DNA of 64,000 nucleotides. Source: Bacillota bacterium (lineage in GTDB: Bacteria; Bacillota; DTU025). Shown piece after piece: positions 9,546 through 38,034 of the stretch (its first letter is position 1; every line of letters starts with the position of its first letter). Made by a program: the position numbers and the translations under genes. Where the stretch lies: positions 1 through 64,000 of the forward strand of contig JBMNJT010000007.1 of assembly GCA_050951805.1 (NCBI GenBank), read 5' to 3'. The notes under the pieces were generated by a model. That model was not told the DNA's origin. It was given only the letters and a program-made list of their open reading frames with translations, and did not search any database.

Positions 9546-9584
9546 GTCAACCCGGATCGGCCGAGCCTCGCCAACATTCTCCCA

Positions 9585-10994: not shown

Positions 10995-11225
10995 TCTCCC
11001 GTCGGCGCCACTGTAATAGCTCCAGCTAAATTAGGTTAACACTAACATATGCGACGCGTTCTTGCAAGAGTATTTTGCGAAGCCCGCGTTTGTTGTCTGT
11101 GTTTAAAGACAAAGTCTGTGCCCCACGGCAGAGCAAACTAACAGCCCGCGGGAAGGATAACCCGAGTTTGCCTTGAATTTTCTCAATAGCCTATCACGCA
11201 ACTGTAGGCAAGGAGGAATGTTGGC

Positions 11226-21344: not shown

Positions 21345-21597
21345 CTTCCCCCATATACCCCCTTAAATGGGCAGGCAAACACACCACCGCTGTCTCCATG
21401 GCCAACACAAAGAACAGAACTGAGTATCAGACATGAATGGGGCCCAAATATGGATCTCCTTTCTATTATCGGCATCCATGTGGCATTCCTTATGTCCAAT
21501 GCTTTCTGTATCAGTTCCACGCCACACCGCAGGGAATATCCTGTGATAGACATATCCTCAACACGAGGAGCCATAAGCACGAACGGAGTGGGTGTAT

Positions 21598-21882
21598 ATG
21601 GCGTTTTACTACGATTACTACGTATTGCCGGAGGAGACTGCTTGCAACTGTGCATCTTATCCTGGGTATGACTTGTGGGCAGATCAATTCGGCCGCCCAT
21701 GGCCTGGCCCACCATGGTGGTATAGTCCATGGTGGTGGTATCCGCCGTGGTGGTACGGTCCATGGCATCCCTGGGGCAGAACGCCCGGTCCAGGCCCCGG
21801 AGGTCCTGGAACTGGCCATCCGGGCGGGCCTTCGCTTCCTCCAGACTTCCAGCGACCGCGAAGCGATGAGGTAGAACAATAA
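21598..21882 (+). CDS. Trp/Pro/Gly/Tyr-rich small protein, possibly a spore coat-type structural protein
   Basis: GGAG/GGGTG RBS, ATG at 21598, repetitive PWW/PGP composition, followed by a terminator hairpin. Confidence 0.6.
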   Translation: MAFYYDYYVLPEETACNCASYPGYDLWADQFGRPWPGPPWWYSPWWWYPPWWYGPWHPWGRTPGPGPGGPGTGHPGGPSLPPDFQRPRSDEVEQ

Positions 21883-21964
21883 CCCAGAGCGGAAAGAACG
21901 GTTCGCACAGCAAGACAATAATTAGTCTGTCAATAGCACAGATACACGACTCAATAATGTCGTC

Positions 21965-21989
21965 GAGGGCAGGGATTGTCCCTGCCCTC
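21965..21989. terminator. intrinsic terminator-like hairpin; target of intron copy 1
   Basis: GAGGGCAGGGA-TTG-TCCCTGCCCTC perfect 11 bp stem, 6 nt upstream of the intron 5' end. Confidence 0.75.
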
Positions 21990-21995
21990 ACATTC

Positions 21996-24087
21996 GTTCG
22001 CCCGGCATGTTTGTTGAGCCGATGGACTGAAAGAAGTCCTGTCACCTAACCAGCGGGAAGACAACCCCAAGGCAAGGGCGTCGCTGGTAACGGCGGGGTC
22101 TGAAGGAAGCTTTAAGGGGGAACACGGAACGTAGCGAAAGCGAACCGAAGTTGGCCTGTCAGGTGGGTAACCTTGCGAAGTATGGGAAAGCCCGAAAGCT
22201 GGATAACCTGGGGGGTTTTGACGGACGGGTTCGTGTTCAGGCAGACAAACTTAACCGGGGAAGCCCTGCATCATCCAGATAGCTGGTAAGCCCAAACAAG
22301 CGGAGACGCAAGGATGGGAATATGTGGTGTGGGGTGGCAGATGAGTCCGTAGTAGTTATGAACCCTCAGCCCATGAAAGCTGGCAACAGACCGGAGGATA
22401 AAACTGAGGGGACAGCGGCCGGGAGCTGCTGGGCTGCATAGGCCAAAAGCCTATGCAGTTGCGAAGGGACGAAGGCAAACCAAAGCGTGCAACCTAGTTA
22501 CAGGCAAGCATGGGAGAGAGATAACAGAGGCTGAAATGCCGATGGGAACGGGGGAGCCGGGGGCGACGAGTCTGCTGGTCCCTGCGCCCGCTCAGCAGAG
22601 TATCAAAGTTTCGCGGGGTAGATTGCCTTAGAGCTAGAGACGCCTCGCAGGCCTTGGGAAGAAACTGCAACCATGCAAGCTTGATGGCCAAGGAAGCACG
22701 GCGAGATGAAGGAGCTAATTGATGAAACACTACAGCTTGATCGATAAGGTTTACCGGATGGATAACCTTAGAGCTGCATACAGGGCCGTCAGGGCCAACA
22801 ACGGGGCTCCCGGGATAGACGGTGAGACCGTGGACGCCTTCGGCGAGAACCTGGAAGCCAGGCTGGCAGAGATTTATCAGGAGCTCAGATCAGGATCTTA
22901 CGAACCAAGTCCGGTGCGGCGGGTAGAGATACCGAAGCCAGACGGAAGCAAAAGGCCTCTTGGCATACCCACCGTTGGCGACAGAGTAGTGCAGCAAGCG
23001 CTGCTCAATGTGGTTCAGCCAATCTTCGACCCCGAATTCCATCCATCGAGCTATGGGTACCGACCCGGGCGATCCTGTCATCAAGCAGTGGCAAAGGCAG
23101 AGAGGTTCATTAATCGCTACGGTCTCAAGCACGTAGTGGACATGGACTTGTCAAAATGCTTTGACCGACTCGATCATGACCTGATCATTGAGTCTGTGAA
23201 CCGAAAGGTCAGCGACGGAAGCATACTTAAGCTGATCCGGAAGTTCCTTGAAGCAGGAGTCATGAAAGACGGGGCCTGGGAGGAAACAACCATAGGCAGT
23301 CCGCAAGGCGGAGTAATATCGCCTCTTCTTGCCAATATCTATCTTGACTACTTTGATCAAAAGATGAAGTCAAAGGACATCAGGATAGTGAGGTACGCTG
23401 ACGATATACTCATCTTTGCGCGGACAAGGCGACAGGCGGAAAAGTTCTTGGAGATAGCGTGCGAGATCCTTGAGGGCGAGTTAAAGCTCGTTGTGAACAG
23501 GGATAAAACGCACATAACCAGCGTCTATAAGGGAGTGCCCTACCTTGGGTTTGTCATATACCCTAAGGTAGTAAGCATACACCCCAAGAAGCTGGCGAAG
23601 TTCAAGGACGCCGTCCGCAAGCTGACTCCCCGCAATCATGGGATGAGTGTTGAGCAGATGGTGAAGCGACTGAACCGATTCCTTCGTGGATGGATCAACT
23701 ACTTTCGAATTGCGAACTGCAAGACGATAGTAGCCAGCCTGATGGGGTGGATAAGGCGGCGTCTGAGGATGAAGCAGATGAGGGAGTGGAAGAGCTGGAG
23801 GGGCCTGCATAAAGCACTTCGAAGGCGAGGCTACTCAGGCGAATTCCTAAAGATATCCATGAGACGATGGAGGAACTCGGCAAGTCCTCTGGTCAACATG
23901 GCGCTTCCTCAGGCTTGGTTCAGTGAGATAGGACTGATTGACCTCACGAAGTATGAGGTCGGCGTCTTGCATCTCTTCTATGAAGCGAAGTGACTAAGGT
24001 TTGCCAGGAGCCGTGTACGGGGCCCGTACGCACGGTTCTGTGAGAGGGATGACGCCAGGCTGATTACCTGGCGCCACCCTACTCGAT
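21996..24087 (+). mobile_element. group II intron, class C-like, full length (copy 1, 2092 nt)
   Basis: 5' GTTCGCCCGGCATG; D5 GAGCCGTGTACGGGGCCCGTACGCACGGTTC (24008-24038); D6 with bulged A ending CTCGAT; RT ORF in D4; boundaries defined by three copies. Confidence 0.95.
22719..23993 (+). CDS. ltrA: group II intron reverse transcriptase/maturase, no endonuclease domain
   Basis: GAPGIDG (RT0), RPLGIPTVGDRVVQ, GSPQGGVISPLLANIYL, YADD, thumb/X domain RGWINYF. Confidence 0.96.
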   Translation: MMKHYSLIDKVYRMDNLRAAYRAVRANNGAPGIDGETVDAFGENLEARLAEIYQELRSGSYEPSPVRRVEIPKPDGSKRPLGIPTVGDRVVQQALLNVVQPIFDPEFHPSSYGYRPGRSCHQAVAKAERFINRYGLKHVVDMDLSKCFDRLDHDLIIESVNRKVSDGSILKLIRKFLEAGVMKDGAWEETTIGSPQGGVISPLLANIYLDYFDQKMKSKDIRIVRYADDILIFARTRRQAEKFLEIACEILEGELKLVVNRDKTHITSVYKGVPYLGFVIYPKVVSIHPKKLAKFKDAVRKLTPRNHGMSVEQMVKRLNRFLRGWINYFRIANCKTIVASLMGWIRRRLRMKQMREWKSWRGLHKALRRRGYSGEFLKISMRRWRNSASPLVNMALPQAWFSEIGLIDLTKYEVGVLHLFYEAK

Positions 24088-24142
24088 AGTAGCCGGCATC
24101 ATTCTGCTGTTCTCAACATTTACGGATTAGGCGGACGTTAAG

Positions 24143-25726
24143 CTAGAAATCGCGGCCCTCTCCCATAACGAGAGCCCTGTAGGCAACCTCTGTCTTTTCC
24201 TGATAGCTTCCACTGCGATCCAAGGCATATGCACGCCCCATCGCCGTTACCACTTCTACATTCATCCCTGACGGGATCTTTGCCTCAAGAATCTCTAGTA
24301 GATCAGCAGCACCCTGTGGCGGACTGCTTCGACCATCAAGGATCAGATGAAGCCAAGCCCGTCCAATTCCTTTTTCCGCTGCTGCTCTGAGCACTGCAAT
24401 CCCCTCGTCCATATTCCCGTGAGAGCTCCGTTCCGACAGCATAGCTATTACATGAATATCGCCGCCATGGCTCCGCGCCGCTTCAAAGCCGTAATTGACT
24501 GCCTCATTCTCTTTGAGCCCTCCAGCGCCAACAGCCTGCGAAATCCGGAGTTCGTCTTGGGGAACAACCCGCCCGGCGCCGAGAGTTAGATGCCCGGTCT
24601 CCGAATTGCCTGACCTTCCCTTTGGCAAACCAACGGCCATCCCAGCCGCAGCCAGAGTCATATATGGACATTCCTTCCTCATTCTGCTCATACACGGCGT
24701 GTTGGCAACTGCAATCGGGTTGATGGTTGAATCATCTATGCCAACTCCCCATCCATCCAAAATAACCAATACCAGTCGATCATAAGTTCCCTCATGGACG
24801 GCGCGGCACTTGCCGGTCATCTCCTCGGGCACAGGTACGCCCATCATGCTCAACAGCGTGGGCGCAACATCTGCAAGGGTGGCATCCTCCGCCGCCCTCA
24901 GTTGCACAGACGGCCCTCCGGTCGCCAACACCAAGCCGAACGGCACACGACTACATGTATGGCTAAGGTTGTGGCTCCCATCTTCATTCACAAACCTCTC
25001 GAGCAGCCCATGATCTGCAGTTACAGCAACTGCATAACCATGTTGAGCCGCAGCTAGGCATATGGTGCTGAGCGCTTGATCTACCGCTTCAGCACAGAGC
25101 ACATTAGCATTCCAATCATCCAGATGCCCAATGATGTCCCCCGCCGCTAGGTTCACAAGGATGAAGTGCCTGCTATAACCACTGGCGTTCGCAGCAGCCA
25201 TCGAGCGCTCAGCTTCGAGGGCAACTTCCACCGTGCTCGTAGCCGGTTTCGAGACAAATTCTGATGAGTGGGGACTTGGCACAGTAATCCACTCTTCATT
25301 GGCATACGGTGCAACGCGCCTGCCATTGAAAAAGAACGTAACATGCGCCGCCTTCTCCGACTCGGCAATCCGCGTCTGCGCCACGCCGGCCTGACTCAGC
25401 GCCTCACCCATGGTTCCTTCAGGACGAAGAGTCGGAAAGATTGTGGGCAACTCAGCAAATTTCTCATGATATTGCACCAACGGAACAACGCTCAGATCAG
25501 GCATGGGTTCCGTTTCGAATTGATCAAATAGCGGGTCAGCTAAGGCCTCTGTGAGCTGTCGTTCACGGTCCCCACGCCTGCAACAAAAGAATAGAGAATC
25601 GCCATTCTTTATCTTGCCCACAGGCTTGCCATCGACGACGCGAGTCAGTGGAGTCATCCAGTAATCCATTTCTCCCCGGCTGTAGCACTCTCTCAAAGCC
25701 TGCTGCAAAGAAGCTGTTGTCTGCAC
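24143..25726 (-). CDS. circularly permuted 2,3-bisphosphoglycerate-independent phosphoglycerate mutase-like protein (GpmI family)
   Basis: Canonical C-terminal motifs (AESEKAAHVTFFFNG, GDIIGH, TADHG, SHT, LADVAPT, EMTGK) come before canonical N-terminal motifs (LVILDGWG, GLP..GNSETGH..GAGR, LDGR, GRAYALDR). Confidence 0.9.
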   Translation of the reverse strand: MQTTASLQQALRECYSRGEMDYWMTPLTRVVDGKPVGKIKNGDSLFFCCRRGDRERQLTEALADPLFDQFETEPMPDLSVVPLVQYHEKFAELPTIFPTLRPEGTMGEALSQAGVAQTRIAESEKAAHVTFFFNGRRVAPYANEEWITVPSPHSSEFVSKPATSTVEVALEAERSMAAANASGYSRHFILVNLAAGDIIGHLDDWNANVLCAEAVDQALSTICLAAAQHGYAVAVTADHGLLERFVNEDGSHNLSHTCSRVPFGLVLATGGPSVQLRAAEDATLADVAPTLLSMMGVPVPEEMTGKCRAVHEGTYDRLVLVILDGWGVGIDDSTINPIAVANTPCMSRMRKECPYMTLAAAGMAVGLPKGRSGNSETGHLTLGAGRVVPQDELRISQAVGAGGLKENEAVNYGFEAARSHGGDIHVIAMLSERSSHGNMDEGIAVLRAAAEKGIGRAWLHLILDGRSSPPQGAADLLEILEAKIPSGMNVEVVTAMGRAYALDRSGSYQEKTEVAYRALVMGEGRDF

Positions 25727-25771
25727 TCCATGTCACTCCTGCACTTCGTTGTCTGCTCTAAGCAGCGAATG

Positions 25772-26836
25772 TTATTTGGGGAAAACCAAGCCGTTCTGGA
25801 TAAACGCACGGGTGCGGTCGCCAGGCTCAAACCTCATTGAGGAATTCGTCTGGACCCTGAGAAGATCCTCGCCAATTCGAACCCGGTATTCGATGACATT
25901 TCCGAGGAATATCCTTACGTCCACTTCGCATTCGACCCCTTGTTCGGTCCCCAGGATGATATCCTCCGGCCTGATAGCGAGGATATAGTCTCCTTTGTTC
26001 ACCGATGATCCGTCAAGATCAAACTCCGCCCCGCCACGAAGGCGAATGTCGATGCCTTTTTCAGTCTTGCCAGTCACACTGCAGGGAACGAAGTTCATAG
26101 TCCCTATGAAGTCGGCAACGAACTTGTCCTTCGGCGTTTCATATATGTCATGAGGCGCACCCTCCTGCACTACTTTGCCGGAGTTCATTACGGCAACCCG
26201 GTCTGACATGGCCATTGCCTCAACCTGGTCATGAGTAACATACAAAATGGATATTCCCGTCTTGCGCTGAATGTCTTTGAGCTCAAAGCGCATCTGCTCT
26301 CGCAGTTTCGCATCGAGATTGGAAAGAGGCTCATCAAGCAGCATAACCCTTGGGTCGGTAGAAAGCGCTCTCCCCAATGCAACGCGTTGCTGCTGTCCAC
26401 CGGAGAGTTCCGATGGGAACCTTCTTTCCAAGCCCTCGAGTTCAAGTAGGTCTAGCAAGTAAGCCATTTTAGCATTGATCTCTTCTTTTGGCCTTTTCGC
26501 CAGCCGAAGGGGGTAGGACATGTTCTGTTCTACTGTCATATGCGGCCATACTGCGTAGTTTTGAAAGACCATTCCTATGCCCCGGCGCTCAGGCGGCACC
26601 ATCACGTTTTTCTCCGGCGAAGTTACCAACTGACCGCTTATGTGTATCTCGCCCTCAGTGGGCTGCTCCAACCCTGAAATGCACCGGAGTGTTGTCGTCT
26701 TCCCGCATCCAGAGGGCCCCAGAAGCGAGAAGAACTCGTTCTCATGAACTGTAAAGCTCACATCGTGAACTGCTGTAAACGTCCCAAACCGCTTGACTAG
26801 GTTTGAAACCTTGATTCGTTCTTCCACCCTTGCCAC
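25772..26836 (-). CDS. ABC transporter ATP-binding protein (FbpC/AfuC/PotA type, TOBE domain)
   Basis: GPSGCGKTT, LSGGQQQR, LLDEPLSNLDA, YVTHDQ. Confidence 0.94.
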   Translation of the reverse strand: MARVEERIKVSNLVKRFGTFTAVHDVSFTVHENEFFSLLGPSGCGKTTTLRCISGLEQPTEGEIHISGQLVTSPEKNVMVPPERRGIGMVFQNYAVWPHMTVEQNMSYPLRLAKRPKEEINAKMAYLLDLLELEGLERRFPSELSGGQQQRVALGRALSTDPRVMLLDEPLSNLDAKLREQMRFELKDIQRKTGISILYVTHDQVEAMAMSDRVAVMNSGKVVQEGAPHDIYETPKDKFVADFIGTMNFVPCSVTGKTEKGIDIRLRGGAEFDLDGSSVNKGDYILAIRPEDIILGTEQGVECEVDVRIFLGNVIEYRVRIGEDLLRVQTNSSMRFEPGDRTRAFIQNGLVFPK

Positions 26837-26849
26837 CTCCGCATACCGT

Positions 26850-28538
26850 TCACATACTGATTTCGCCTTTTGAAAGCTTCCGCACGATTGCGTTGCCAGC
26901 CAAGATCACAAGCAAAACAATCGTAGACAACGCCGCAGCTATCTGGGTGTACCCGGCATCTTGCATGTTGTATATAACCACTCCTATAGTCTCAGCGCCC
27001 TGTGACCACAGAAGAACGGACATGGTCAACTCCCTCAGAGCTGGCATGAAAACCAGGATCCACCCGGCTATGAGGCCAGGTTTGATCAACGGCATCACAA
27101 TGTCTTTCATTGTCTGAGTCCATCCTGCCCCGGAAACCCGCGCAGCTTCCTCAAGCGAAACATGCACCTGCTGAAGAGTCGCGTTGGTAGTGCGAATCGA
27201 AAATGGCATGTACCGCACTAGGTAAGCCGCAAGTATGACCCATATCGTGCCGTAAAGCATCACAGGGGGTCGCGACCAGGCCAAGATCATGGCAATTGCC
27301 ACCATAGTACATGGCACCGCGTAAGGTATGGTTCCTACGAAGTCGAGAGTCTTGGCTCCCTTGATCTTGGCCCGCACAGACATGTAAGATACCAAAGCTC
27401 CAACGGCCATGGTGATTGTGGCAGCAGAAACCGCCAGGAACAAGCTGTTCCTAAATGCCCTGGATGCCATGGGCAGATCCAAAATGTATTTGTAATGACT
27501 CGTAGTCATATTCGCAAGGTTCAGCGGTGCGCCCCAGTATTTGAGGAATGAAGTCAAAAGCATCGATATCAGCGGAACTACCCCTGCAAAAAGCGATACG
27601 AGGACAACGATGATAAGGACAGGGATCCGCCAACCGCCTAGACTCATTGTTTGAGGCCTGACGCTCTTGCCCGCAATCACTGTATACCTGCTTTGCCCAC
27701 GCTCCAGTCTCCTCTCGAGAATAAGGGGAATCCCAGATGTAATCGCCAGGATAACCGCCATCGCAGTCGCCAATGGCATATCCGGTATGGACAGAGCGGA
27801 GTATATCTTCGTAGTCAACACGAAGAACCGGGCCCTGAACCCAAGAAGAGCCGGAATTCCGAAGTTGGATATGCAGCCGACAAACGCAAGCAATGCGCTA
27901 GCTGTGATCGCAGGCGTGATCAGTGGCATAGTTACATCTATGAGAGTCCTAAACGGACCTGCGCCAGACATCCTCGCGGCTTCTTCTAAGCTCGTATCGA
28001 TCTTGCCAAGCGCCCCACTCACAGTTATGAAAACGACGGGAAACTGATATACAGCGAGCACTAATACTACCCCGGCAGCACTGTATATGTTCCACGGAGC
28101 AGATGTCGCGCCCGTAAGCGTCATATATAGCTTAGATACGTAACCTACTGGTCCAAAAAGCTGAGCCCACGCCATCGCACCAATGAACGGCGGTATGCCA
28201 TACGGCAGCAGGAGCAGCATCCTCAACCACGACTTGCCCGGGATATCTGTTCGGACAACGAGCATAGCCAGGATAGTGCCTACAGCCACACATATCAGAG
28301 TAGACAGAGACGAAACCCAGATGGAATTCCAAAAGGCTTTAAGATTGGCTGACTCAGAGAAGATTTTCACATAGTTTTCGAAAGTAAAACCCGCCTCAGA
28401 ACTGAAACTCTTAACTACAACAAGGGACAGAGGGTACACGATGACGACCAGGAAGAACAGCCCAATGATGGCCATGAACACATAGCGTACATCCATAGAT
28501 CGTCGTCCAACTGCTGTGTCCGTATTCAATCGAATCAT
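26850..28538 (-). CDS. ABC transporter permease, fused two-domain (FbpB/AfuB type)
   Basis: Two EAA motifs (SLEEAARMSGA, SLEEAARVSGA); start ATG 28538 or TTG 28529 after AGGAGG. Confidence 0.92.
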   Translation of the reverse strand: MIRLNTDTAVGRRSMDVRYVFMAIIGLFFLVVIVYPLSLVVVKSFSSEAGFTFENYVKIFSESANLKAFWNSIWVSSLSTLICVAVGTILAMLVVRTDIPGKSWLRMLLLLPYGIPPFIGAMAWAQLFGPVGYVSKLYMTLTGATSAPWNIYSAAGVVLVLAVYQFPVVFITVSGALGKIDTSLEEAARMSGAGPFRTLIDVTMPLITPAITASALLAFVGCISNFGIPALLGFRARFFVLTTKIYSALSIPDMPLATAMAVILAITSGIPLILERRLERGQSRYTVIAGKSVRPQTMSLGGWRIPVLIIVVLVSLFAGVVPLISMLLTSFLKYWGAPLNLANMTTSHYKYILDLPMASRAFRNSLFLAVSAATITMAVGALVSYMSVRAKIKGAKTLDFVGTIPYAVPCTMVAIAMILAWSRPPVMLYGTIWVILAAYLVRYMPFSIRTTNATLQQVHVSLEEAARVSGAGWTQTMKDIVMPLIKPGLIAGWILVFMPALRELTMSVLLWSQGAETIGVVIYNMQDAGYTQIAAALSTIVLLVILAGNAIVRKLSKGEISM

Positions 28539-28590
28539 CCCCCTCCTACAATGGGCTGGGGTACACTGCATACAGTAATGTACTCCCCAG

Positions 28591-29455
28591 ATCGAGTAGG
28601 GTGGCGCCAGGTAATCAGCCTGGCGTCATCCCTCTCACAGAACCGTGCGTACGGGCCCCGTACACGGCTCCTGGCAAACCTTAGTCACTTCGCTTCATAG
28701 AAGAGATGCAAGACGCCGACCTCATACTTCGTGAGGTCAATTCATCTCGCCGTGCTTCCTTGGCCATCAAGCTTGCATGGTTGCAGTTTCTTCCCAAGGC
28801 CTGCGAGGCGTCTCTAGCTCTAAGGCAATCTACCCCGCGAAACTTTGATACTCTGCTGAGCGGGCGCAGGGACCAGCAGACTCGTCGCCCCCGGCTCCCC
28901 CGTTCCCATCGGCATTTCAGCCTCTGTTATCTCTCTCCCATGCTTGCCTGTAACTAGGTTGCACGCTTTGGTTTGCCTTCGTCCCTTCGCAACTGCATAG
29001 GCTTTTGGCCTATGCAGCCCAGCAGCTCCCGGCCGCTGTCCCCTCAGTTTTATCCTCCGGTCTGTTGCCAGCTTTCATGGGCTGAGGGTTCATAACTACT
29101 ACGGACTCATCTGCCACCCCACACCACATATTCCCATCCTTGCGTCTCCGCTTGTTTGGGCTTACCAGCTATCTGGATGATGCAGGGCTTCCCCGGTTAA
29201 GTTTGTCTGCCTGAACACGAACCCGTCCGTCAAAACCCCCCAGGTTATCCAGCTTTCGGGCTTTCCCATACTTCGCAAGGTTACCCACCTGACAGGCCAA
29301 CTTCGGTTCGCTTTCGCTACGTTCCGTGTTCCCCCTTAAAGCTTCCTTCAGACCCCGCCGTTACCAGCGACGCCCTTGCCTTGGGGTTGTCTTCCCGCTG
29401 GTTAGGTGACAGGACTTCTTTCAGTCCATCGGCTCAACAAACATGCCGGGCGAAC
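28591..29455 (-). mobile_element. ORF-less group II intron derivative (copy 3, 865 nt)
   Basis: Same 5' end, D1-D3, D5 and D6 as copy 1, with a 1227 nt deletion (copy 1 positions 22711-23937) removing the RBS, start and most of the RT ORF; junction at about 28740/28741. Confidence 0.92.
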
Positions 29456-31547
29456 ATCGAGTAGGGTGGCGCCAGGTAATCAGCCTGGCGTCATCCCTCT
29501 CACAGAACCGTGCGTACGGGCCCCGTACACGGCTCCTGGCAAACCTTAGTCACTTCGCTTCATAGAAGAGATGCAAGACGCCGACCTCATACTTCGTGAG
29601 GTCAATCAGTCCTATCTCACTGAACCAAGCCTGAGGAAGCGCCATGTTGACCAGAGGACTTGCCGAGTTCCTCCATCGTCTCATGGATATCTTCAGGAAT
29701 TCGCCTGAGTAGCCTCGCCTTCGAAGTGCTTTATGCAGGCCCCTCCAGCTCTTCCACTCCCTCATCTGCTTCATCCTCAGACGCCGCCTTATCCACCCCA
29801 TCAGGCTGGCTACTATCGTCTTGCAGTTCGCAATTCGAAAGTAGTTGATCCATCCACGAAGGAATCGGTTCAGTCGCTTCACCATCTGCTCAACACTCAT
29901 CCCATGATTGCGGGGAGTCAGCTTGCGGACGGCGTCCTTGAACTTCGCCAGCTTCTTGGGGTGTATGCTTACTACCTTAGGGTATATGACAAACCCAAGG
30001 TAGGGCACTCCCTTATAGACGCTGGTTATGTGCGTTTTATCCCTGTTCACAACGAGCTTTAACTCGCCCTCAAGGATCTCGCACGCTATCTCCAAGAACT
30101 TTTCCGCCTGTCGCCTTGTCCGCGCAAAGATGAGTATATCGTCAGCGTACCTCACTATCCTGATGTCCTTTGACTTCATCTTTTGATCAAAGTAGTCAAG
30201 ATAGATGTTGGCAAGAAGAGGCGATATTACTCCGCCTTGCGGACTGCCTATGGTTGTTTCCTCCCAGGCCCCGTCTTTCATGACTCCTGCTTCAAGGAAC
30301 TTCCGGATCAGCTTAAGTATGCTTCCGTCGCTGACCTTTCGGTTCACAGACTCAATGATCAGGTCATGATCGAGTCGGTCAAAGCATTTTGACAAGTCCA
30401 TGTCCACTACGTGCTTGAGACCGTAGCGATTAATGAACCTCTCTGCCTTTGCCACTGCTTGATGACAGGATCGCCCGGGTCGGTACCCATAGCTCGATGG
30501 ATGGAATTCGGGGTCGAAGATTGGCTGAACCACATTGAGCAGCGCTTGCTGCACTACTCTGTCGCCAACGGTGGGTATGCCAAGAGGCCTTTTGCTTCCG
30601 TCTGGCTTCGGTATCTCTACCCGCCGCACCGGACTTGGTTCGTAAGATCCTGATCTGAGCTCCTGATAAATCTCTGCCAGCCTGGCTTCCAGGTTCTCGC
30701 CGAAGGCGTCCACGGTCTCACCGTCTATCCCGGGAGCCCCGTTGTTGGCCCTTACGGCCCTGTATGCAGCTCTAAGGTTATCCATCCGGTAAACCTTATC
30801 GATCAAGCTGTAGTGTTTCATCAATTAGCTCCTTCATCTCGCCGTGCTTCCTTGGCCATCAAGCTTGCATGGTTGCAGTTTCTTCCCAAGGCTTGCGAGG
30901 CGTCTCTAGCTCTAAGGCAATCTACCCCGCGAAACTTTGATACTCTGCTGAGCGGGCGCAGGGACCAGCAGACTCGTCGCCCCCGGCTCCCCCGTTCCCA
31001 TCGGCATTTCAGCCTCTGTTATCTCTCTCCCATGCTTGCCTGTAACTAGGTTGCACGCTTTGGTTTGCCTTCGTCCCTTCGCAACTGCATAGGCTTTTGG
31101 CCAATGCAGCCCAGCAGCTCCCGGCCGCTGTCCCCTCAGTTTTATCCTCCGGTCTGTTGCCAGCTTTCATGGGCTGAGGGTTCATAACTACTACGGACTC
31201 ATCTGCCACCCCACACCACATATTCCCATCCTTGCGTCTCCGCTTGTTTGGGCTTACCAGCTATCTGGATGATGCAGGGCTTCCCCGGTTAAGTTTGTCT
31301 GCCTGAACACGAACCCGTCCGTCAAAACCCCCCAGGTTATCCAGCTTTCGGGCTTTCCCATACTTCGCAAGGTTACCCACCTGACAGGCCAACTTCGGTT
31401 CGCTTTCGCTACGTTCCGTGTTCCCCCTTAAAGCTTCCTTCAGACCCCGCCGTTACCAGCGACGCCCTTGCCTTGGGGTTGTCTTCCCGCTGGTTAGGTG
31501 ACAGGACTTCTTTCAGTCCATCGGCTCAACAAACATGCCGGGCGAAC
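29456..31547 (-). mobile_element. group II intron, class C-like, full length (copy 2, 2092 nt)
   Basis: Near-identical reverse complement of 21996-24087; its 3' end directly abuts the 5' end of copy 3. Confidence 0.95.
29550..30824 (-). CDS. ltrA: group II intron reverse transcriptase/maturase
   Basis: Protein identical to 22719..23993. Confidence 0.96.
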   Translation of the reverse strand: MMKHYSLIDKVYRMDNLRAAYRAVRANNGAPGIDGETVDAFGENLEARLAEIYQELRSGSYEPSPVRRVEIPKPDGSKRPLGIPTVGDRVVQQALLNVVQPIFDPEFHPSSYGYRPGRSCHQAVAKAERFINRYGLKHVVDMDLSKCFDRLDHDLIIESVNRKVSDGSILKLIRKFLEAGVMKDGAWEETTIGSPQGGVISPLLANIYLDYFDQKMKSKDIRIVRYADDILIFARTRRQAEKFLEIACEILEGELKLVVNRDKTHITSVYKGVPYLGFVIYPKVVSIHPKKLAKFKDAVRKLTPRNHGMSVEQMVKRLNRFLRGWINYFRIANCKTIVASLMGWIRRRLRMKQMREWKSWRGLHKALRRRGYSGEFLKISMRRWRNSASPLVNMALPQAWFSEIGLIDLTKYEVGVLHLFYEAK

Positions 31548-31552
31548 AAAGA

Positions 31553-31578
31553 GGCGGTGCGGCCTCAGTCGCACCGCC
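31553..31578 (-). terminator. intercistronic stem-loop after the SBP gene; target of intron copies 2/3
   Basis: Minus strand GGCGGTGCG-ACTGAGGC-CGCACCGCC-TCTTT, then the intron 5' end. Confidence 0.7.
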
Positions 31579-31608
31579 GCGGTCAGGGTGTTTATTCACG
31601 ACACGCAC

Positions 31609-32589
31609 CTATTTGAACATTATTTTCTCGAAGGTCTCCCTTATAGCAGACGCGTTATCAGCCGCCCATTGGAATGGAACGGGCATCATCTTTATTTTAT
31701 CTGCCGTAGGCATTCCCTTCGGAGGAGCTACATCTGGCCTCACTGGTATCACACCATCATTGACCAATAGCTCCTGCCCCTTCTTCGAGAGAGTGAAGTC
31801 TACAAATGCCTTGGAGGCCTCAAGATTCTTTGACCCAGCAACTATCGCTACCGGACTCGGAATTGAGACCGCACCGTCGGCAGGCCAGACAAAATCAACC
31901 GGCGCTCCCGACTTCTGAAGGTCATAAATCATGTAGTCCAGCACCATGCAGGCTGCAAATTCGCCAGCAGCCAAACCTCTCGAAACATCTGAATTGCCCC
32001 TGAGAACCTGTATTCCAGATTTTCGCGCTTTCTCGTACCAGCTCCAACCTTTGTCTCTTTGAACAAAAGCCGCTGCAACAGTGAAGTTGGAACCAGAATA
32101 GAGGGGGTCCGCCATTGCGGCGCGAGAACCAAACCCGAGCAAGTCATCCCAAGTCTTTGGCTCGGATCCTTTCTTGACTAAATTGGTGTTTATTCCAATT
32201 ACCATGTTAATCATGCGAGCGCCTGTAAAGTATCCGTCAGGGTCCTTGATTGCTGAAGGAATGCGGGCGGCTTCCGGCGATTTGTACGGATATAGCAAGC
32301 CCTTGTCCTTGAATGCGTAGTAGCTTGCAGCATCAGCCAGCCATATTACGTCGGCCCTTATACCGCCAGCATCAGCCTCAGCCCATATCTTGTTGACCAC
32401 ATCAGTGCTTCCAGCTCGAAAAACTTCCACCTTGATCCCTTTATTCGCCTTCATGAATTGGTCTGCGAAGTTCGTAGCGAGTTCCAGTGGAACAGACGTG
32501 TAAAGCAGGACCTTCGACTCAGCAAATACACCAGTAGAGATCGACAGCAACAATACCAAAGCCAGGACTATTACACTGCCCCTTTTCAT
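31609..32589 (-). CDS. ABC transporter substrate-binding protein (AfuA/FbpA/PgtC-like)
   Basis: Signal peptide MKRGSVIVLALVLLLSISTGVFA; LLYTS, RAGS, ADVIW, DPLYSGS, AFVDFTLSKKGQ; ATG at 32589 after GAGG. Confidence 0.88.
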   Translation of the reverse strand: MKRGSVIVLALVLLLSISTGVFAESKVLLYTSVPLELATNFADQFMKANKGIKVEVFRAGSTDVVNKIWAEADAGGIRADVIWLADAASYYAFKDKGLLYPYKSPEAARIPSAIKDPDGYFTGARMINMVIGINTNLVKKGSEPKTWDDLLGFGSRAAMADPLYSGSNFTVAAAFVQRDKGWSWYEKARKSGIQVLRGNSDVSRGLAAGEFAACMVLDYMIYDLQKSGAPVDFVWPADGAVSIPSPVAIVAGSKNLEASKAFVDFTLSKKGQELLVNDGVIPVRPDVAPPKGMPTADKIKMMPVPFQWAADNASAIRETFEKIMFK

Positions 32590-32666
32590 GTTCAACCCGC
32601 CTCTCTTTTGATTGGTGGTATACTTGGTTAACCCCCACTCGCGCAGGGGCACGACCAGCGAATCAA

Positions 32667-33998
32667 CTAGTCATGCAACTTGATCTTTCGAGCCACCTTT
32701 AGCACTTCTTCTTCTAGATCGATAGAAGCATCTGTAGGAATAGGCTCATTATCGATATACACGATCTCAAGCCCCTTACGTACCGCCCATTCAGTCACAA
32801 CATCTACTGCAGCAGCCTTGAGTTCAGAGACGATTGCATCAGGCTTCAACGTTTCAAAACGCGCCAGGTCCTCTCGGAGCAGCGGCCTGTTCGAAAGGTG
32901 CGAGCTAACTCCAACAACCTCACATCCATAAGTCTTCTCAAGATAAGCAGATATGGCATCTGTCATCACCGCAGGCGTAGTTAGAGTGAGGACTATTCTC
33001 TTACCGGTAATATCGCCAATCGGGCGAGGTCTGAAAATGGTCTTCACCACCGTGCATCCGGCGTTTATCTCGTGAATGGCTTCTACCATCTCGTCAATCT
33101 TAGCTTGGTCAACCATTGGAGACTCACACATTGTAAGAACAATTAAGTCGGAGGTAAGAATACGATAAGGCCCGAGGTAAGAGCGCATATACTCTACGGG
33201 TTGGTGAGCACCGATGACTAGTATGCGCGCATCCGTGTGCACCGAAGGTATAGATGAACCGCTGCCTTCGAATATGACTATGTCGGCGTCGATCTTTTCC
33301 GACAGTTCAGCACCTCTGTCCACATTTGAGACAAAAGTCTGTCCCGACATCCCGCCTCCACACCGTCGACAGCCGATGGTTGTAACCCTTGAGGTAAGCA
33401 GATCCTCGAAATGGTCAGACGATGCATGGCGCCCTTGTTTGCTAACGGACAACAAATACTCGGGCGTGATCTCAATCTCAGACGCGCTGAGCAGCTCAGG
33501 CTCTGCAGGACCACCCCGCCCCATGGTAACCACGACGGGGTTATACTTCTTCGCCAGCGTCCGCGCGACAAAACCGCCGACAGCAGTCTTTCCGATTCTC
33601 TTCCCGGTTCCTATGACCGAGATACTCGGCCTGCTTACGCGCGCCGCCTCTACAGGAGGAGTGAACTGGAAATCCGCGCCCCGGTAAGCGACACCCTTTG
33701 CAAGCACATTGCTGGCAATCTCAAACCGCTCCTTGTAGCCAACTACAGGCTCGTCGCTAAGATCAACAACCTCATCCGGATCGTATTTGTCTATAGCGGC
33801 TGCGATAGCATGGAGATAGTCATCCTCATGCACTACAGGAACTCCAAGTCTGGCAAGATCAGAATCAGAACCAATCTTCTCAGTGCCGCCAATGAAAACG
33901 GCAGCCAATATGTCGAGCTCCCCCTTGAGCACCTCTATGGCATCATGAGTTACCGCAGGGTAATGCTCACCGTCTGTAAGTACAATAGCTTTCTTCAT
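32667..33998 (-). CDS. cpgS: cyclic 2,3-diphosphoglycerate synthetase
   Basis: DGEHYP, FIGGTEK, DLSDEPV, GTGKRIGKTAV, MGRGGP, HASSDHFED, GCRRCGGG, EGSG, HLSNRPLLR, ELKAAAVDV, all matching the archaeal cDPGS family as recalled. Confidence 0.9.
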   Translation of the reverse strand: MKKAIVLTDGEHYPAVTHDAIEVLKGELDILAAVFIGGTEKIGSDSDLARLGVPVVHEDDYLHAIAAAIDKYDPDEVVDLSDEPVVGYKERFEIASNVLAKGVAYRGADFQFTPPVEAARVSRPSISVIGTGKRIGKTAVGGFVARTLAKKYNPVVVTMGRGGPAEPELLSASEIEITPEYLLSVSKQGRHASSDHFEDLLTSRVTTIGCRRCGGGMSGQTFVSNVDRGAELSEKIDADIVIFEGSGSSIPSVHTDARILVIGAHQPVEYMRSYLGPYRILTSDLIVLTMCESPMVDQAKIDEMVEAIHEINAGCTVVKTIFRPRPIGDITGKRIVLTLTTPAVMTDAISAYLEKTYGCEVVGVSSHLSNRPLLREDLARFETLKPDAIVSELKAAAVDVVTEWAVRKGLEIVYIDNEPIPTDASIDLEEEVLKVARKIKLHD

Positions 33999-34019
33999 AA
34001 TGCTCCACCACCGTTGTTG

Positions 34020-34808
34020 CTAGAATGAAGATGCATTGACAACCATCTCCTTTACCTTGCGCATGTTGGTGAGATCTACATATGTCTTGCACATATCCCC
34101 ACGTATCAGAGACTTTGCATATAGAATTGGTGTGGGCGATTCCGCGTAAGAAATGCGCTCATTGAGCATTGCCAATGCGCCAACTGATTGTCCAAGAAGG
34201 TCAGCTTCTAGGCTACCGAGGAAGACTGGCCGGAAGGTCTCGTCGCTCCTTTTCAGGACAATACCGTATTCATCACGGAGTATCCGAAATAGCGATCTTG
34301 ATAGATCGGCCTCTTCAATGCCGATAGCCACATCGGGGGAGATGAAAGTCGTCTCAATTAGCATTGGAATGCCATCGACTTTTTTCAAGCGTCTGATCCT
34401 TAACACTTCCGAGTCGTCTTCAATGGCCAAATACGCACTGACAAGATTGGAAGCCGCAACCCGGTCTATAGTAAGAACCTCCGCCCAGAATTCGTGTCCA
34501 AGAGCTCGAATTCTGGACGCAAGACGCATTTCGTCGGTGATATAGGTCGTCTCCTTGTACTCCATGGGCCATTGCGGAACTGAAACAAAAGTTCCCTTCC
34601 CTTGTACAGAATAGAGCAGGCCCTCATGAACTAATTCCGAAATGGCCTGCTTAGCTGTTGTAGTGCTTATGTCATAGGTTCCGCACAACTCACGTATTGA
34701 GGGAATGCGCGTCTCGGGCTCCCATTCGCCCGAGACGATCTTCTCCTTGAGCTCTTCTTTAAGCTGATAATACAGGGGAATAAAACTGTCCTTCTTAAGC
34801 ATTGGCAC
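34020..34808 (-). CDS. GntR family regulator, HutC subfamily (UTRA domain)
   Basis: PLYYQL...IPSIREL...VQGKGTFV HTH plus UTRA-type C-terminus; GGAGG precedes GTG 34808 / ATG 34802. Confidence 0.9.
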   Translation of the reverse strand: MPMLKKDSFIPLYYQLKEELKEKIVSGEWEPETRIPSIRELCGTYDISTTTAKQAISELVHEGLLYSVQGKGTFVSVPQWPMEYKETTYITDEMRLASRIRALGHEFWAEVLTIDRVAASNLVSAYLAIEDDSEVLRIRRLKKVDGIPMLIETTFISPDVAIGIEEADLSRSLFRILRDEYGIVLKRSDETFRPVFLGSLEADLLGQSVGALAMLNERISYAESPTPILYAKSLIRGDMCKTYVDLTNMRKVKEMVVNASSF

Positions 34809-34834
34809 GAAAGCCTCCATACCGTAATGGACCT

Positions 34835-34916
34835 TGTAGCATATTGCCAGCTACATTAAGTGTGTGTGTTAACGTGTTATCGCTTACTGTATTTCTACAT
34901 TTCCTAAGCGATTCCT
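34835..34916 (-). promoter_or_regulatory. putative sigmaH-like promoter and inverted-repeat operator of the cpgS operon
   Basis: Minus strand AGGA(34916-34913)-N17-GAAAT; TGTAGC-N9-GCTACA palindrome at about 34835-34855. Confidence 0.4.
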
Positions 34917-34977
34917 CTTTCAAGACCTTCCATTTATACATCCATTAATTACAACAGCCATCTGCTGCCACGCCATG

Positions 34978-35108
34978 CCCATCTTCATTCACAAACCTCT
35001 CGAGCAGCCCATGATCTGCAGTTACAGCAGCTGCATAACCATGTTGAGCCGCCACTAGGTTCACAAGGATGAAGTGCCCGCTATAACCGCTGGCGTTCGC
35101 GGCAGCCA
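34978..35108 (-). repeat. decayed direct-repeat copy of part of the permuted mutase gene
   Basis: 34978-35052 matches 24977-25051 (1 mismatch); 35049-35108 matches 25141-25200 (4 mismatches); 93 nt internal deletion. Confidence 0.9.
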
Positions 35109-35370
35109 AGGTTCATTTACCGAGGAGATGTCTAAGGATATAGGCAATGTGGTTAGAAGCCGTAGAAGGCATCATGGTTAGAGTAAGAACCCTTGAATGG
35201 GTCCGGCAGATACTATTCGTCACCAAGTTGCCCATCGAAGGCGAACAGTCAAAATGTGCGTAGGCTAACCGATACGGGATGGTTCTGTGCAGAGCACGAT
35301 GGAGTGATGGGACTGTTCTTTGCTGGAAAACCTAATTGAAGTAGATCAGAACTAAAGGACGTGAACTCCG

Positions 35371-35742
35371 ATGGAAATCAGGGAGCATGCCATCATACCT
35401 CTCGGCTATGGCAAGTATGTGCGTTCAGACAAGATCATCGCCCTCGATCCTATAGAAGATGAGCGGGGACCCGGTCGGCGTACCAGGGTCTACGTTGACC
35501 AGCTACCCGGCCCATTAATCGCTTCAAGGACCGAGAACTCCATCCTAGCAAGCATCGTCAGGACCCCAACAGAGGTTCTTGAAGCCACAGCCGCCCTTGA
35601 ACTCCTTCAAGATCTTCTAGACGACATAGAACAGATCGGCCCAATGCTGCGGAAGAGCATTAAAGAAGAGGCCGGACTCGACTTGGAGGAACTCGAGCGC
35701 AAGATAAGGGAGATATTAACCCATGAACTGAATGCGGAATGA
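35371..35742 (+). CDS. hypothetical protein, N-terminus weakly RemA/DUF370-like
   Basis: AAGGA RBS, protein-like composition; IPLGYGKYVRSDKIIAL...GRRTR. Confidence 0.65.
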   Translation: MEIREHAIIPLGYGKYVRSDKIIALDPIEDERGPGRRTRVYVDQLPGPLIASRTENSILASIVRTPTEVLEATAALELLQDLLDDIEQIGPMLRKSIKEEAGLDLEELERKIREILTHELNAE

Positions 35743-36033
35743 GCTTGTCACACAACTGCTTTCCGCTACCGGATGCGCCGTAAAACCCACGACTCGCGGT
35801 CACGTTCCGATATCATATTAGCCCGAGAGATGACGTTATGGTTGTTTTTCGGCATGTGTACGTATTTAAGACCCCGTCTTAGATTCATTGGCAAGCTGAT
35901 TTTCCGCTGGCAGCGCAGCTTGCTCGGTCTGTGATCTACTTCTGCGCTGTCTCTGAATTCCCATCACACGATGGCTATTCGAAAGCGCCTAAACACATCG
36001 ACAATAAGACCCGCTGGGGCTGAAAACGAAAAC

Positions 36034-36053
36034 AGCGGGGCCTACTCCCCGCT
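36034..36053 (-). terminator. intrinsic terminator after tRNA-Leu
   Basis: AGCGGGG-N6-CCCCGCT followed by GTTTTCGTTTT on the minus strand. Confidence 0.65.
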
Positions 36054-36062
36054 ACAAATAGC

Positions 36063-36148
36063 TGGTGCCGGAGGCGGGATTCGAACCCGCACGTCCTTGC
36101 GGACAGAGGATTTTAAGTCCCCTGCGTCTGCCTTTCCGCCACTCCGGC
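36063..36148 (-). tRNA. tRNA-Leu(TAA)
   Basis: GCCGGAGTGGCGGAAAGGCAGACGCAGGGGACTTAAAATCCTC...GGTTCGAATCCCGCCTCCGGCACCA; long variable arm, CCA encoded. Confidence 0.96.
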
Positions 36149-36288
36149 CTCGACTTTATTGTCGCAAACAACCTCAAGAAAAGTATACCACGACCGCGCC
36201 CCTTGCGCTACGCACGTAGCCTGCAAAGGATTACCAAAGCCGCCTCCTGCAGACCCATCGAATACAGAAATAGCGCCAAGCTCCGATT

Positions 36289-38034
36289 TCACAACTTGCT
36301 TCCGCAGCGGCCTAACCCGATGCAGGCCGCCATACCATCGAGTATTCCAGCTGCGCTCACCACAACCTCAGCCGCGCCCGCAAGATCCATCACCTCAAGG
36401 ATTATCGCCGCCCCGGCAGGCATCACCCTGGCCCGCTCCGGCTGGATCATCCCTTTCACCTGCATTCTTTCAGCACACGCCAACGAGCACAAGCCAAGAA
36501 ATGCCTCCTCCAACTCTTCCCTGTGCAAAGCGTAGCCATGGACCATGTCCGGATCTAGCGTTTCCAACTCCAAACCGATTGAAGCAAGTGTAACAGCGGA
36601 TCCGCCTACCACGACTATCGTCGATAGAATACCGCCATCCTCCCCGTCCATCGGTAAGCCATGCACAAACTCCCGCGCCCCCTCCAGACAGAACCGAATA
36701 TGCCCACGCATCTGCTCAATCTCCCCCCGCGATGGAGGGTCTGAACAAAGGAACTCGTCTGTCAGGCTCACTGCCCCGAGCGGAAGGCTTATAGATCTTA
36801 CCTCACCCGTGCAAGAATCGAGCCTCGTGAACTCAGTGCTCATGCCCCCGGAATCCACTATCAGCAAGGATCGCGGGTCGATCGCGACGGAAGGCGCAAC
36901 ACTTCCGACCGCAGCTGCTGAACCTGCGCCAGCCACAACGCCCAGAAACGACAATTCGGCCTCAAACTCCGGTGACACAACTTCGAGCCTGACTTCGCAT
37001 GCCTCTTTAACTTGACGGATCAAGGCTTCGGAGTCCTCCGCCGCCCTCGCCGCCGCTGTAGCTGTCACCCATACCCTATCAGCTCCCAGGCTGCGACTGA
37101 GCCCCATAAAGTCGCTAATGGCTTCGACAGTAGCTGCCCGGCCTGCCTCAGACAACCTTCCAGTTTCCCCAAGCCCATGCCCGAGCCCGGTAATCCGGGC
37201 ATCCATGCACACCCCGAAAACCCTTGGAACCCCAACAACGCCAGAATCTCCATATGCTTTCATAATCTTTGAGCAGACGGAGCCGTCAGAACCTGCCGAC
37301 CAATTCGGCCGCGACACTACATCGGCCACAAGCACCTTAGTCGAATTGGAACCGGCATTTATCGCCGCCACCCGCGCCGGAACACATCTCCCCCCGTCAC
37401 ACTCAAGCCATACCCCGGCTTGGCGCAGCCGACTCACGGCCATGTCCCCAACAGGATTGTTATTGCCCGCCATGTAATCCGCAACATGCATGTGGAGGCA
37501 TTTCACCCCTGCAAAGCGCGCCACCCCGCCTATGCCTGTATCTCTGAGAACCCGAAGCATTTTTGGAGCCTCTTTCTCCAGAAACTCCAGATCATCTTCG
37601 CCTATGAGCGCCATCCTTTGCGCAGCATACCTCGTATTGGCACACTCGTGCGCCTTCCGGAAATCTTCATCCCGCTCTATCAGCTCTGCCGCCTCGCCTA
37701 TCATGCCCTCACTTTCCAACACCGATATGGCTTCGCGTACGTGGGGGCATGTAAGCCAGTAGACCGTAGGAAAGGGCTTAGGTTTCACAACCCGCCCCAG
37801 CCCGCCATTGTGCCATATGACGGGGTAGGTCGACACAACCTGTGGTTGCCCGTAAGAACACCGCCGGGGAATTCGAGCAATGCTGCCGATAAGATCTCGG
37901 CCGAGCTGCGCGGCAACGACCGCTCGATCTATGGCCCTAGGCTTTACGAAGTCTTGATGCTCCTCACGCATTTCGGCAGTTCTCCCATGGCCGCCTTCTA
38001 TCGACTTCCCCAGTTTCTTGCTCAACAAACACAC
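36289..38034 (-). CDS. DUF501 domain fused to Ppx/GppA phosphatase
   Basis: N-terminal PFPTVYWLTCP...GIGG...VKCLHMH (DUF501); C-terminal NAGSNST, ATAAARAA, EAELSFLG, DSGGMSTE, SLPLGAV; start uncertain. Confidence 0.85.
   Translation of the reverse strand: MCLLSKKLGKSIEGGHGRTAEMREEHQDFVKPRAIDRAVVAAQLGRDLIGSIARIPRRCSYGQPQVVSTYPVIWHNGGLGRVVKPKPFPTVYWLTCPHVREAISVLESEGMIGEAAELIERDEDFRKAHECANTRYAAQRMALIGEDDLEFLEKEAPKMLRVLRDTGIGGVARFAGVKCLHMHVADYMAGNNNPVGDMAVSRLRQAGVWLECDGGRCVPARVAAINAGSNSTKVLVADVVSRPNWSAGSDGSVCSKIMKAYGDSGVVGVPRVFGVCMDARITGLGHGLGETGRLSEAGRAATVEAISDFMGLSRSLGADRVWVTATAAARAAEDSEALIRQVKEACEVRLEVVSPEFEAELSFLGVVAGAGSAAAVGSVAPSVAIDPRSLLIVDSGGMSTEFTRLDSCTGEVRSISLPLGAVSLTDEFLCSDPPSRGEIEQMRGHIRFCLEGAREFVHGLPMDGEDGGILSTIVVVGGSAVTLASIGLELETLDPDMVHGYALHREELEEAFLGLCSLACAERMQVKGMIQPERARVMPAGAAIILEVMDLAGAAEVVVSAAGILDGMAACIGLGRCGSKL

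Follow-up and report, generated by a model that had tools for sequence, protein, structure and literature searches.

A bacterial gene cluster joining a cyclic 2,3-diphosphoglycerate synthetase homologue to an ABC importer and a circularly permuted phosphoglycerate mutase paralogue: a putative route for uptake and consumption of an archaeal solute

Cyclic 2,3-diphosphoglycerate (cDPG) is described as exclusive to hyperthermophilic methanogens, with only its synthesis known (PMC10690619). In archaea this synthesis employs a 2-phosphoglycerate (2-PG) kinase together with cDPG synthetase (cDPGS), the latter having been solved from Methanothermus fervidus (8ORK/8ORU). Here we analyse a stretch of 64,000 nucleotides from a Bacillota bacterium (contig JBMNJT010000007.1 of assembly GCA_050951805.1; hereafter the window), in which a cDPGS homologue is encoded in a gene cluster of quite different composition. 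With the archaeal pathway it shares the fold of the synthetase, its Walker A motif and the named contacts of 2,3-diphosphoglycerate (2,3-DPG), ADP and Mg. A 2-PG kinase is absent, however; cDPGS is instead accompanied by an importer, a regulator and a circularly permuted paralogue of cofactor-independent phosphoglycerate mutase (iPGM), and the synthetase reaction is proposed to run in reverse.

The cluster also differs from the pairs of cDPGS and 2-PG kinase genes found in Actinomycetota, Poribacteria-like and other metagenome-assembled genomes (MAGs). There, the hosts are likewise bacterial and the enzyme family is the same, but cDPGS adjoins the 2-PG kinase gene (and, in Actinomycetota, a Metallophos phosphoesterase gene), with neither an importer nor a permuted mutase next to it. 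In its general plan, the cluster rather resembles catabolic operons for compatible solutes under the control of GntR-type regulators, such as mngR-mngA-mngB for mannosylglycerate in E. coli, with MngR being of the HutC/UTRA type, or the ectoine system ehu/eut with its regulator EnuR. Common to all of these are a transporter, a dedicated regulator of the GntR family and enzymes by which a solute made by other organisms is channelled back into central metabolism. The solute, the transporter class and the enzymes differ, however, and an ATP-yielding opening of the cDPG ring would be new. We propose that the operon serves the substrate-regulated uptake and consumption of cDPG and/or 2,3-DPG, a reading that we consider probable, if only just.

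Six co-oriented genes occupy the minus strand from 24143 to 34820, in the order regulator, cDPGS homologue, binding protein, fused permease, ATPase and permuted mutase. Together with the upstream region, they are:

34841-34880, minus strand, promoter/operator-like region, as read from the sequence: repeats ATAACACG TTAACAC, -35-like TTAACA, 17 nt, TGGCAATAT
34020-34820, minus strand, GntR/UTRA regulator (Pfam GntR and UTRA)
32667-33998, minus strand, cDPGS homologue, 443 aa (PDB sequence match 8oru)
31609-32652, minus strand, extracytoplasmic solute-binding protein of the AfuA/P5PA/PhnS2 cluster (Pfam SBP_bac_8/6/1/11)
26850-28571, minus strand, fused two-domain ABC importer permease, 573 aa (two BPD_transp_1 stretches)
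25772-26836, minus strand, ABC importer ATPase with C-terminal TOBE domain (ABC_tran 1.1e-36, TOBE_2 1.6e-08)
24143-25726, minus strand, circularly permuted iPGM paralogue, 527 aa (TIGR01307 in two swapped stretches)

Intergenic distances are 13-45 nt throughout, except between the binding-protein and permease genes, where about 80 nt remain once two inserted group II introns are subtracted. The cluster had originally been predicted from the letters of the DNA as six closely spaced, co-oriented genes, and both position and spacing proved to be as described. This arrangement reflects more than chance, as many loci from two phyla share the gene set.

On sequence criteria, the identification of the 443-aa protein as a cDPGS, already made in the original prediction, is firm. 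Although the local copies of Pfam and NCBIfam hold no family for it, a PDB sequence search matched residues 2-435 of 443 to the M. fervidus enzyme (8oru/8ork, E 5.3e-139) and returned a further cDPGS entry, 9sxb, at E 9.8e-133. Identity to the characterised enzyme is about 52% over the full length. In the M. fervidus structure, 2,3-DPG, ADP and Mg are contacted by K145, R146, K149 and T150 (P-loop), D208, E305, T353, E404 and K406, with E45 and K46 supplied by the partner subunit (PMC10690619). By alignment to 8oru, the equivalents here are E40, K41, K133, R134, K137, T138, D195, E292, T340, E392 and K394, and all 11 are invariant among 18 relatives of 49-87% identity. The gene is single-copy in the source genome (tblastn) and belongs to a large family, with 7781 of 8000 candidates scored against it at E <= 1e-10; the relatives listed from a large protein collection carry PF27272. 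We also looked for residues specific to the cluster-linked cDPGS proteins that might betray a functional shift, but these differ from all others only at positions 184 and 304, neither of which is a known contact, so that no such shift is shown.

The cluster is conserved as a unit, yet accessory and patchy. In a scan at one genome per species, 567 stretches encode a cDPGS relative; among the best 80, which were kept, five contain the cluster. Two Bacillota MAGs (L002, L003) have all six genes in the same order, and in L001 the cluster is broken off within the ATPase gene. L009 (G040:C239), a relative from the same class, carries a decayed remnant with the regulator gene, a truncated cDPGS gene in pieces and fragments of the genes for binding protein and mutase. 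The order is different in L007, an Anaerolineae MAG, i.e. binding protein, permease, ATPase, a TIM-barrel gene, cDPGS and permuted mutase. When metagenome contigs were scanned with the permuted mutase as bait, cDPGS was found within the DNA examined in 12 of the 80 loci kept. Nine of these belong to the 11 loci with a mutase at least 48% identical, and the other three (L101, L104, L154) to the 69 loci with a more distant mutase. Conservation elsewhere, a check set by the original prediction, is thus borne out in both collections.

The source's uncultured Bacillota class comprises only 21 species genomes, of which nine encode cDPGS and nine the permuted mutase, with both on one contig within 6 kb in seven; of the four genomes with a single match, three have it at contig ends or in highly fragmented assemblies. 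Among 401 sampled Anaerolineae genomes, only that of L007 itself has cDPGS. Such a patchy, accessory distribution fits a niche nutrient trait.

The trees are quick ones, and their support values have to be read with care. Among the 90 rows of the cDPGS tree, cluster-linked members occupy three places: a Bacillota-type clade of 13 rows that is sister to sequences from Thermococci (SH-aLRT 99), L007 together with L104, and the long branch of L154, which stands by itself. The 83-row tree of permuted mutases likewise has cDPGS-linked members at no fewer than three positions. Several loci have the other genes without cDPGS. L174, again from a class relative, combines a different ABC importer with a GntR/UTRA regulator and a permuted mutase; L093 has a GntR regulator, mutase and a divergent importer; and in L105 and L117 the genes after that of the mutase encode a binding protein, permease and ATPase resembling those of the cluster, with an RpiR regulator in L105. 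Importer and mutase, usually with a regulator, thus look like a self-sufficient module to which cDPGS is an upstream addition. Because such loci exist, the mutase seems to be the step that reaches central metabolism.

A gene for a xylose-isomerase-like TIM-barrel protein lies beside the mutase or cDPGS gene in L007 (9048-9923) and L117 (5708-6553). As genes for a GH4 glycosidase and a PfkB kinase are also found in the vicinity, the Anaerolineae-type versions may be part of a larger catabolic island for solutes or sugars.

The clearest difference between loci with and without the cluster concerns 2-PG kinase, which was searched for in whole genomes with NF003259. The source genome (2.75 Mb in 8 contigs, 97% complete) has no match at E <= 0.01. 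None of five other cluster genomes (one with two P-loop scraps, E 0.004-0.008) and none of the 21 class genomes (two weak, stop-containing matches of 31.5 and 19.6 bits) exceeds the cut-off, although some genomes are probably shared between these two sets and relatives do not count as independent. In the cDPGS genomes without the cluster, by contrast, the kinase is present in 25 of 25 (5/5 and 20/20), with E values from 2.8e-51 to 2.1e-133. The split is complete. It is also visible locally, as at loci lacking the importer cDPGS commonly adjoins a protein with ATP-cone and P-loop that matches NCBIfam 2-phosphoglycerate kinase models (25 of the 80 genome loci). Both a search of the cluster's genome for the kinase and a scoring of neighbourhoods for importer and permuted GpmI against pgk2 had been proposed with the original prediction, and both came out in its favour.

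In Actinomycetota MAGs (L004, L005, L021, L031, L046; at about 9100-12400), the cDPGS gene has a Metallophos phosphoesterase gene upstream and the 2-PG kinase gene downstream. To our knowledge, no gene has been assigned to a cDPG hydrolase. This activity has been described, however (PMC1224877), and the Actinomycetota phosphoesterase is a candidate for it.

The importer resembles those for small phosphorylated molecules. From its likely start at Met22 (32589), the binding protein would carry a Sec-type signal peptide. Its nearest solved relatives in a PDB sequence search are P5PA, which binds pyridoxal phosphate (E 1.5e-23), and AfuA, which binds sugar phosphate (E 5.8e-20), whereas ferric-binding proteins are far more distant. 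With the AfuABC/P5PA importers of Actinobacillus (PDB 4R72-4R75, 6WCE) the system shares the phosphate clamp, a fused permease and a single ATPase, but the binding protein is only about a quarter identical in alignments judged by eye. In P5PA and AfuA the clamp is formed by Ser, Thr and Gly at the N-termini of three helices (PMC8427247). The motifs AGST, YSGSN and RGNS align to T37, S147-G148-T149 and S183 of P5PA and are conserved among 18 cluster-linked binding proteins, while Arg146, which is nearly invariant, and Tyr240 take the place of the residues that bind the ring, Tyr103 and His203/205. Such a site would fit a ligand that is phosphorylated and additionally anionic.

Binding of Fe3+ was considered and rejected. 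At the positions aligned to the ligands of FbpA, which we take to be His9, Glu57, Tyr195 and Tyr196, the protein has Pro, Ala, Tyr and Met, i.e. one in four is kept; the earlier assignment to the AfuABC/PgtC type rather than the ferric type is therefore upheld by ligand positions and clamp alike. A PhnS2/PhnT2/PhnU2 importer for 2-aminoethylphosphonate was also discarded, with 126 versus 393, 358 versus 458 and 200 versus 593 bits against the NCBIfam equivalog cut-offs; the last of these values belongs to PhnU2, which is the top NCBIfam match of the permease.

The last gene of the cluster encodes an unusual relative of a glycolytic enzyme. With 391.2 bits, the protein passes the cut-off of TIGR01307 (330.65), but it does so in two stretches of swapped order, with residues 5-306 corresponding to iPGM 212-516 and residues 318-525 to iPGM 6-211. 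By alignment this is a true circular permutation with its breakpoint at canonical residue 211/212. An AlphaFold model, built with 18 relatives, has a pLDDT of 93.6 and a pTM of 0.89, and its top structural matches in Foldseek are iPGMs, each aligned over about half of the chain (some 280 columns), as expected because of the permutation. A normal GpmI is encoded elsewhere in the source genome (682 bits), which makes the permuted enzyme a paralogue. The permuted family is large: among 120 relatives listed, 117 align collinearly over 92% or more of the protein, at 42-99% identity.

How much of the active site is retained can be judged against 1EJJ, the iPGM of B. stearothermophilus, for whose residues we presume the commonly assigned roles. 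D324, S375, D197, H201, D238, H239 and H256 align to D12, S62, D403, H407, D444, H445 and H462 of 1EJJ and are all invariant, and with these assignments both metal sites and the Ser nucleophile are retained. Further invariant residues are K125, R51, R54, R466, R498, R504 and H436. The permuted protein thus shares with canonical GpmI the two-domain fold, both metal sites, the nucleophile and most of the substrate Arg, Lys and His residues. Apart from the permutation, it differs throughout the family by Arg50 in place of Phe260 (NFRxDR to CRRGDR), Ser467 in place of Asp154 (DGRD to DGRS) and SSHGN in place of GGVHSH, whereas the source genome's own GpmI keeps DGRD, NFRGDR and GGVHS. Tested for the full canonical substrate pocket and the canonical domain order of iPGM, the permuted mutase has neither. 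The extra arginine in the pocket would suit a second phosphate.

A literature search for a permuted iPGM found no paper, and one for a list of iPGM active-site residues found none either; in the available part of Foster et al. (PMC2964296), iPGM paralogues are termed rare and permutation is not mentioned.

Elsewhere in the family, a clade of 58 rows is found in clusters of genes for a HAD hydrolase, the permuted mutase and an ApgM-like mutase, followed by an RpiR regulator, a PRK-like kinase or a transporter of the ABC or MFS type (e.g. L113, L125, L146, L110, L127); the pathway behind these clusters may be glycerate-related. Another group of permuted mutases is located between RapZ and a gene of the phosphoglucomutase family.

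As originally predicted, the regulator is of the HutC type, with a GntR winged helix (PF00392, 3.5e-18) and a C-terminal UTRA domain (PF07702, 2.9e-30). It starts either with ATG at 34820 or with GTG at 34808, and its top NCBIfam matches, PhnR, HutC and PhnF, are all far under their cut-offs. Upstream, two repeats with a period of 8 nt (34866-34880) overlap a -35-like TTAACA, with TGGCAATAT following 17 nt downstream, and similar repeats precede the regulator gene in L086, L089, L091/L175 and L003. A consensus promoter scan did not list 34841-34880, which by its layout we nevertheless take as the putative promoter and operator.

If the operon does serve uptake and consumption, it may work as follows. 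The secreted AfuA/P5PA-like protein would capture a polyanionic phospho-ligand, to be imported by the fused permease and the TOBE-containing ATPase. cDPGS, operating in reverse, would convert cDPG, ADP and Pi into 2,3-DPG and ATP. The permuted iPGM would strip one phosphate from 2,3-DPG via its phosphoserine site, or at least pass phosphoglycerate on to glycolysis, and the HutC-type regulator would keep the operon repressed from the tandem TTAACAC repeats at the promoter, to be released when its UTRA domain takes up the ligand or an intermediate. Libraries containing the stretch come from activated sludge, sludge, an anaerobic digester and a biogas fermenter. Methanobacteriales are common in sludge and digester systems, and methanogens would be the likely source of cDPG in this habitat. 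In a more far-reaching version, which we rate as rather doubtful in this complete form, bacteria living alongside methanogens would harvest the archaeal extremolyte cDPG as an energy-rich phosphagen, reversed cDPGS would open the imported cyclic pyrophosphate and form ATP directly, and the permuted iPGM branch, which carries the additional active-site arginine, would be a new type of 2,3-bisphosphoglycerate phosphatase feeding the carbon back into glycolysis.

That cDPGS can be reversed, as the original prediction assumed, is in print for the M. fervidus enzyme, which forms ATP from cDPG, ADP and Pi (PMC1224877, Roberts review). Several points weigh against consumption, however. The cDPGS activity of M. 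thermautotrophicus seems irreversible (PMC1224877), and under standard conditions the synthetic direction is highly exergonic (De Rose et al., PMC10690619). Just two non-contact positions set the cluster-linked cDPGS apart and nothing in it marks a reverse enzyme, so that the case for direction rests on gene context. The ATP cost of ABC import would leave a small energetic gain, and nothing singles out cDPG over 2,3-DPG or a relative as the imported ligand. Most permuted mutases are not beside cDPGS (65 of the 83 tree rows lack it in the DNA examined). Because most of the family thus belongs to other clusters, the enzyme may be an ordinary mutase, which would leave the operon without a dedicated 2,3-DPG phosphatase. 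One of three unlinked histidine-phosphatase (His_Phos_1) proteins in the source genome could then take this role instead. Finally, the other genomes with the cluster are MAGs of partial or unstated completeness, and the reading as a whole is drawn from gene content and sequence. A point that speaks for consumption is that a GpmA-type mutase able to make 2,3-DPG was not found in the source genome (best 39 bits against a cut-off of 81.7). As to the original catabolic interpretation, all the computational checks it proposed came out favourably, while ligand and direction stay at the level of inference. Its assumption that the mutase dephosphorylates 2,3-DPG is weakened by the many family members without cDPGS.

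The same genes could also be read as a salvage pathway for accumulation, in which the importer takes up 2,3-DPG, e.g. from hydrolysed cDPG, or cDPG itself, cDPGS working forward at the expense of ATP builds or re-closes cDPG as a solute or phosphate store, and the mutase only trims 2,3-DPG. Synthesis is the demonstrated and favoured direction of cDPGS, an importer in the absence of 2-PG kinase would equally fit the salvage of a precursor, and the composition of the proteome suggests a warm-living organism, with an estimated growth temperature of about 49 °C (from a composition formula applied to crude open reading frames (ORFs), hence a hint only). Yet a HutC/UTRA regulator of the substrate type and the constant link to an enzyme of central metabolism fit consumption better, the variants without cDPGS would stop at 2,3-DPG, an implausible end point if a solute were to be built, and patchy presence inside one genus and family would be odd for a core stress solute. 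It is chiefly because of these cDPGS-less variants of importer and mutase that consumption is preferred over synthesis, and we regard salvage as unlikely.

More improbable still is that cDPG is not involved at all and the cDPGS homologue and the permuted mutase act on a related phosphorylated acid, i.e. an analogue of 2,3-DPG. The ring-binding residues of the binding protein, which match neither AfuA nor P5PA, the breadth of a permuted-mutase family mostly unlinked to cDPGS and the family-wide alterations at R50 and S467 of the active site would be in line with such a substrate. An enzyme with about 52% full-length identity to a characterised cDPGS, in which each named 2,3-DPG contact is invariant and which two positions alone separate from other cDPGS proteins, is difficult to reconcile with it. 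We give hardly any credence to a fourth option, kinase-independent de novo synthesis, where the mutase would pass a phosphoryl group from one phosphoglycerate to another and cDPGS would cyclise the 2,3-DPG so formed, with the importer being unrelated or bringing in phosphoglycerate. In principle, the phosphoserine enzyme of iPGM could phosphorylate phosphoglycerate and the extra Arg50 could hold the second phosphate, but we know of no precedent for such a transfer. Moreover, this option leaves unexplained why importer and substrate-type regulator always travel with the enzymes, and the cDPGS-less variants argue against 2,3-DPG as a product. Substrate-regulated uptake and consumption thus remains our preferred interpretation.

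Group II introns have inserted into the operon, and a rearrangement has left a trace upstream of it, as seen in the following features:

29456-31547, minus strand (operon sense), full-length group II intron, 2092 nt (Rfam RF02001, RF00029)
29550-30824, minus strand, reverse transcriptase/maturase gene in the full intron, 424 aa (TIGR04416, 428 bits)
28591-29455, minus strand, ORF-less intron derivative of 865 nt that adjoins the full copy in tandem (Rfam matches 29201-29370 and 28591-28672)
31553-31578, minus strand, GC-rich hairpin of 9 pairs after the binding-protein gene (terminator-like scan)
34978-35169, minus strand, remnant of the permuted-mutase gene, about 190 nt, approximately residues 161-250 (blastn; tblastn E 8e-13)

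The two tandem introns (28591-31547) split the binding-protein gene from the permease gene, the first one starting 5 nt downstream of the 9-pair hairpin. Rfam reports group II intron domains three times within 21500-36500, and blastn delimits the copies: the full intron is 99.5% identical to a full copy on the other strand (21996-24087, plus strand), and the ORF-less derivative consists of segments of 715 and 151 nt, i.e. the first 715 and the last 151 nt of the intron, at 100% identity. At least 10 more full or ORF-less copies are present elsewhere in the genome (contigs C2, C3, C4, C8). The maturase has RVT_1 and GIIM domains and no match to an endonuclease domain, and with both full and 865-nt ORF-less copies the intron family is active in the source genome.

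Contigs from RNA libraries (four runs, each from a different study) reach 20-29 of the 30 bins into which the stretch was divided. Three of the four runs include a contig in which 28590 is followed exactly by 31548, the ends of the skipped segment reading GT..AT on the operon strand, which fixes the outer intron boundaries. Taking these joints as evidence of transcription or splicing was rejected, as such libraries may contain DNA and intron-less DNA alleles exist in L084 (100% identity) and L085 (86%). A further joint, which steps back by 865 in run X4, is ambiguous owing to the repeated 151 nt.

The mutase remnant, just upstream of the regulator gene, is 93-96% identical at the nucleotide level to 24977-25058 and 25141-25200 (blastn) and looks like a non-functional duplication or recombination scar of the cluster. 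A Ppx/GppA-DUF501 gene further upstream (36289-38034) was dismissed as a member of the operon, as a tRNA gene and a 123-aa ORF intervene and the upstream genes differ at other loci.

The best 80 of the 567 cDPGS stretches include homologues from many bacterial MAGs (Actinomycetota, Poribacteria and others), from Thermococci and from mesophilic Methanobrevibacter, most of them accompanied by 2-PG kinase. This wide occurrence of the pair among uncultured Actinomycetota and other bacteria calls into question whether cDPG is indeed confined to hyperthermophilic methanogens. The original prediction had known of no described pathway of the kind proposed here, and our literature search likewise found no paper on bacterial uptake, use or degradation of cDPG.

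If our interpretation is correct, the cluster would provide the first importer, regulator and catabolic route for cDPG, with a biosynthetic ligase being run backwards for substrate-level phosphorylation, and it would assign a function to a large, unstudied branch of circularly permuted iPGMs. cDPG can be made commercially (PMC12136491), and the proposal is directly testable with four recombinant proteins and this compound. In a wider context, it would establish a trophic link from methanogens to fermenting bacteria in digesters, i.e. a solute food chain across domains that has its own importer and its own repressor.

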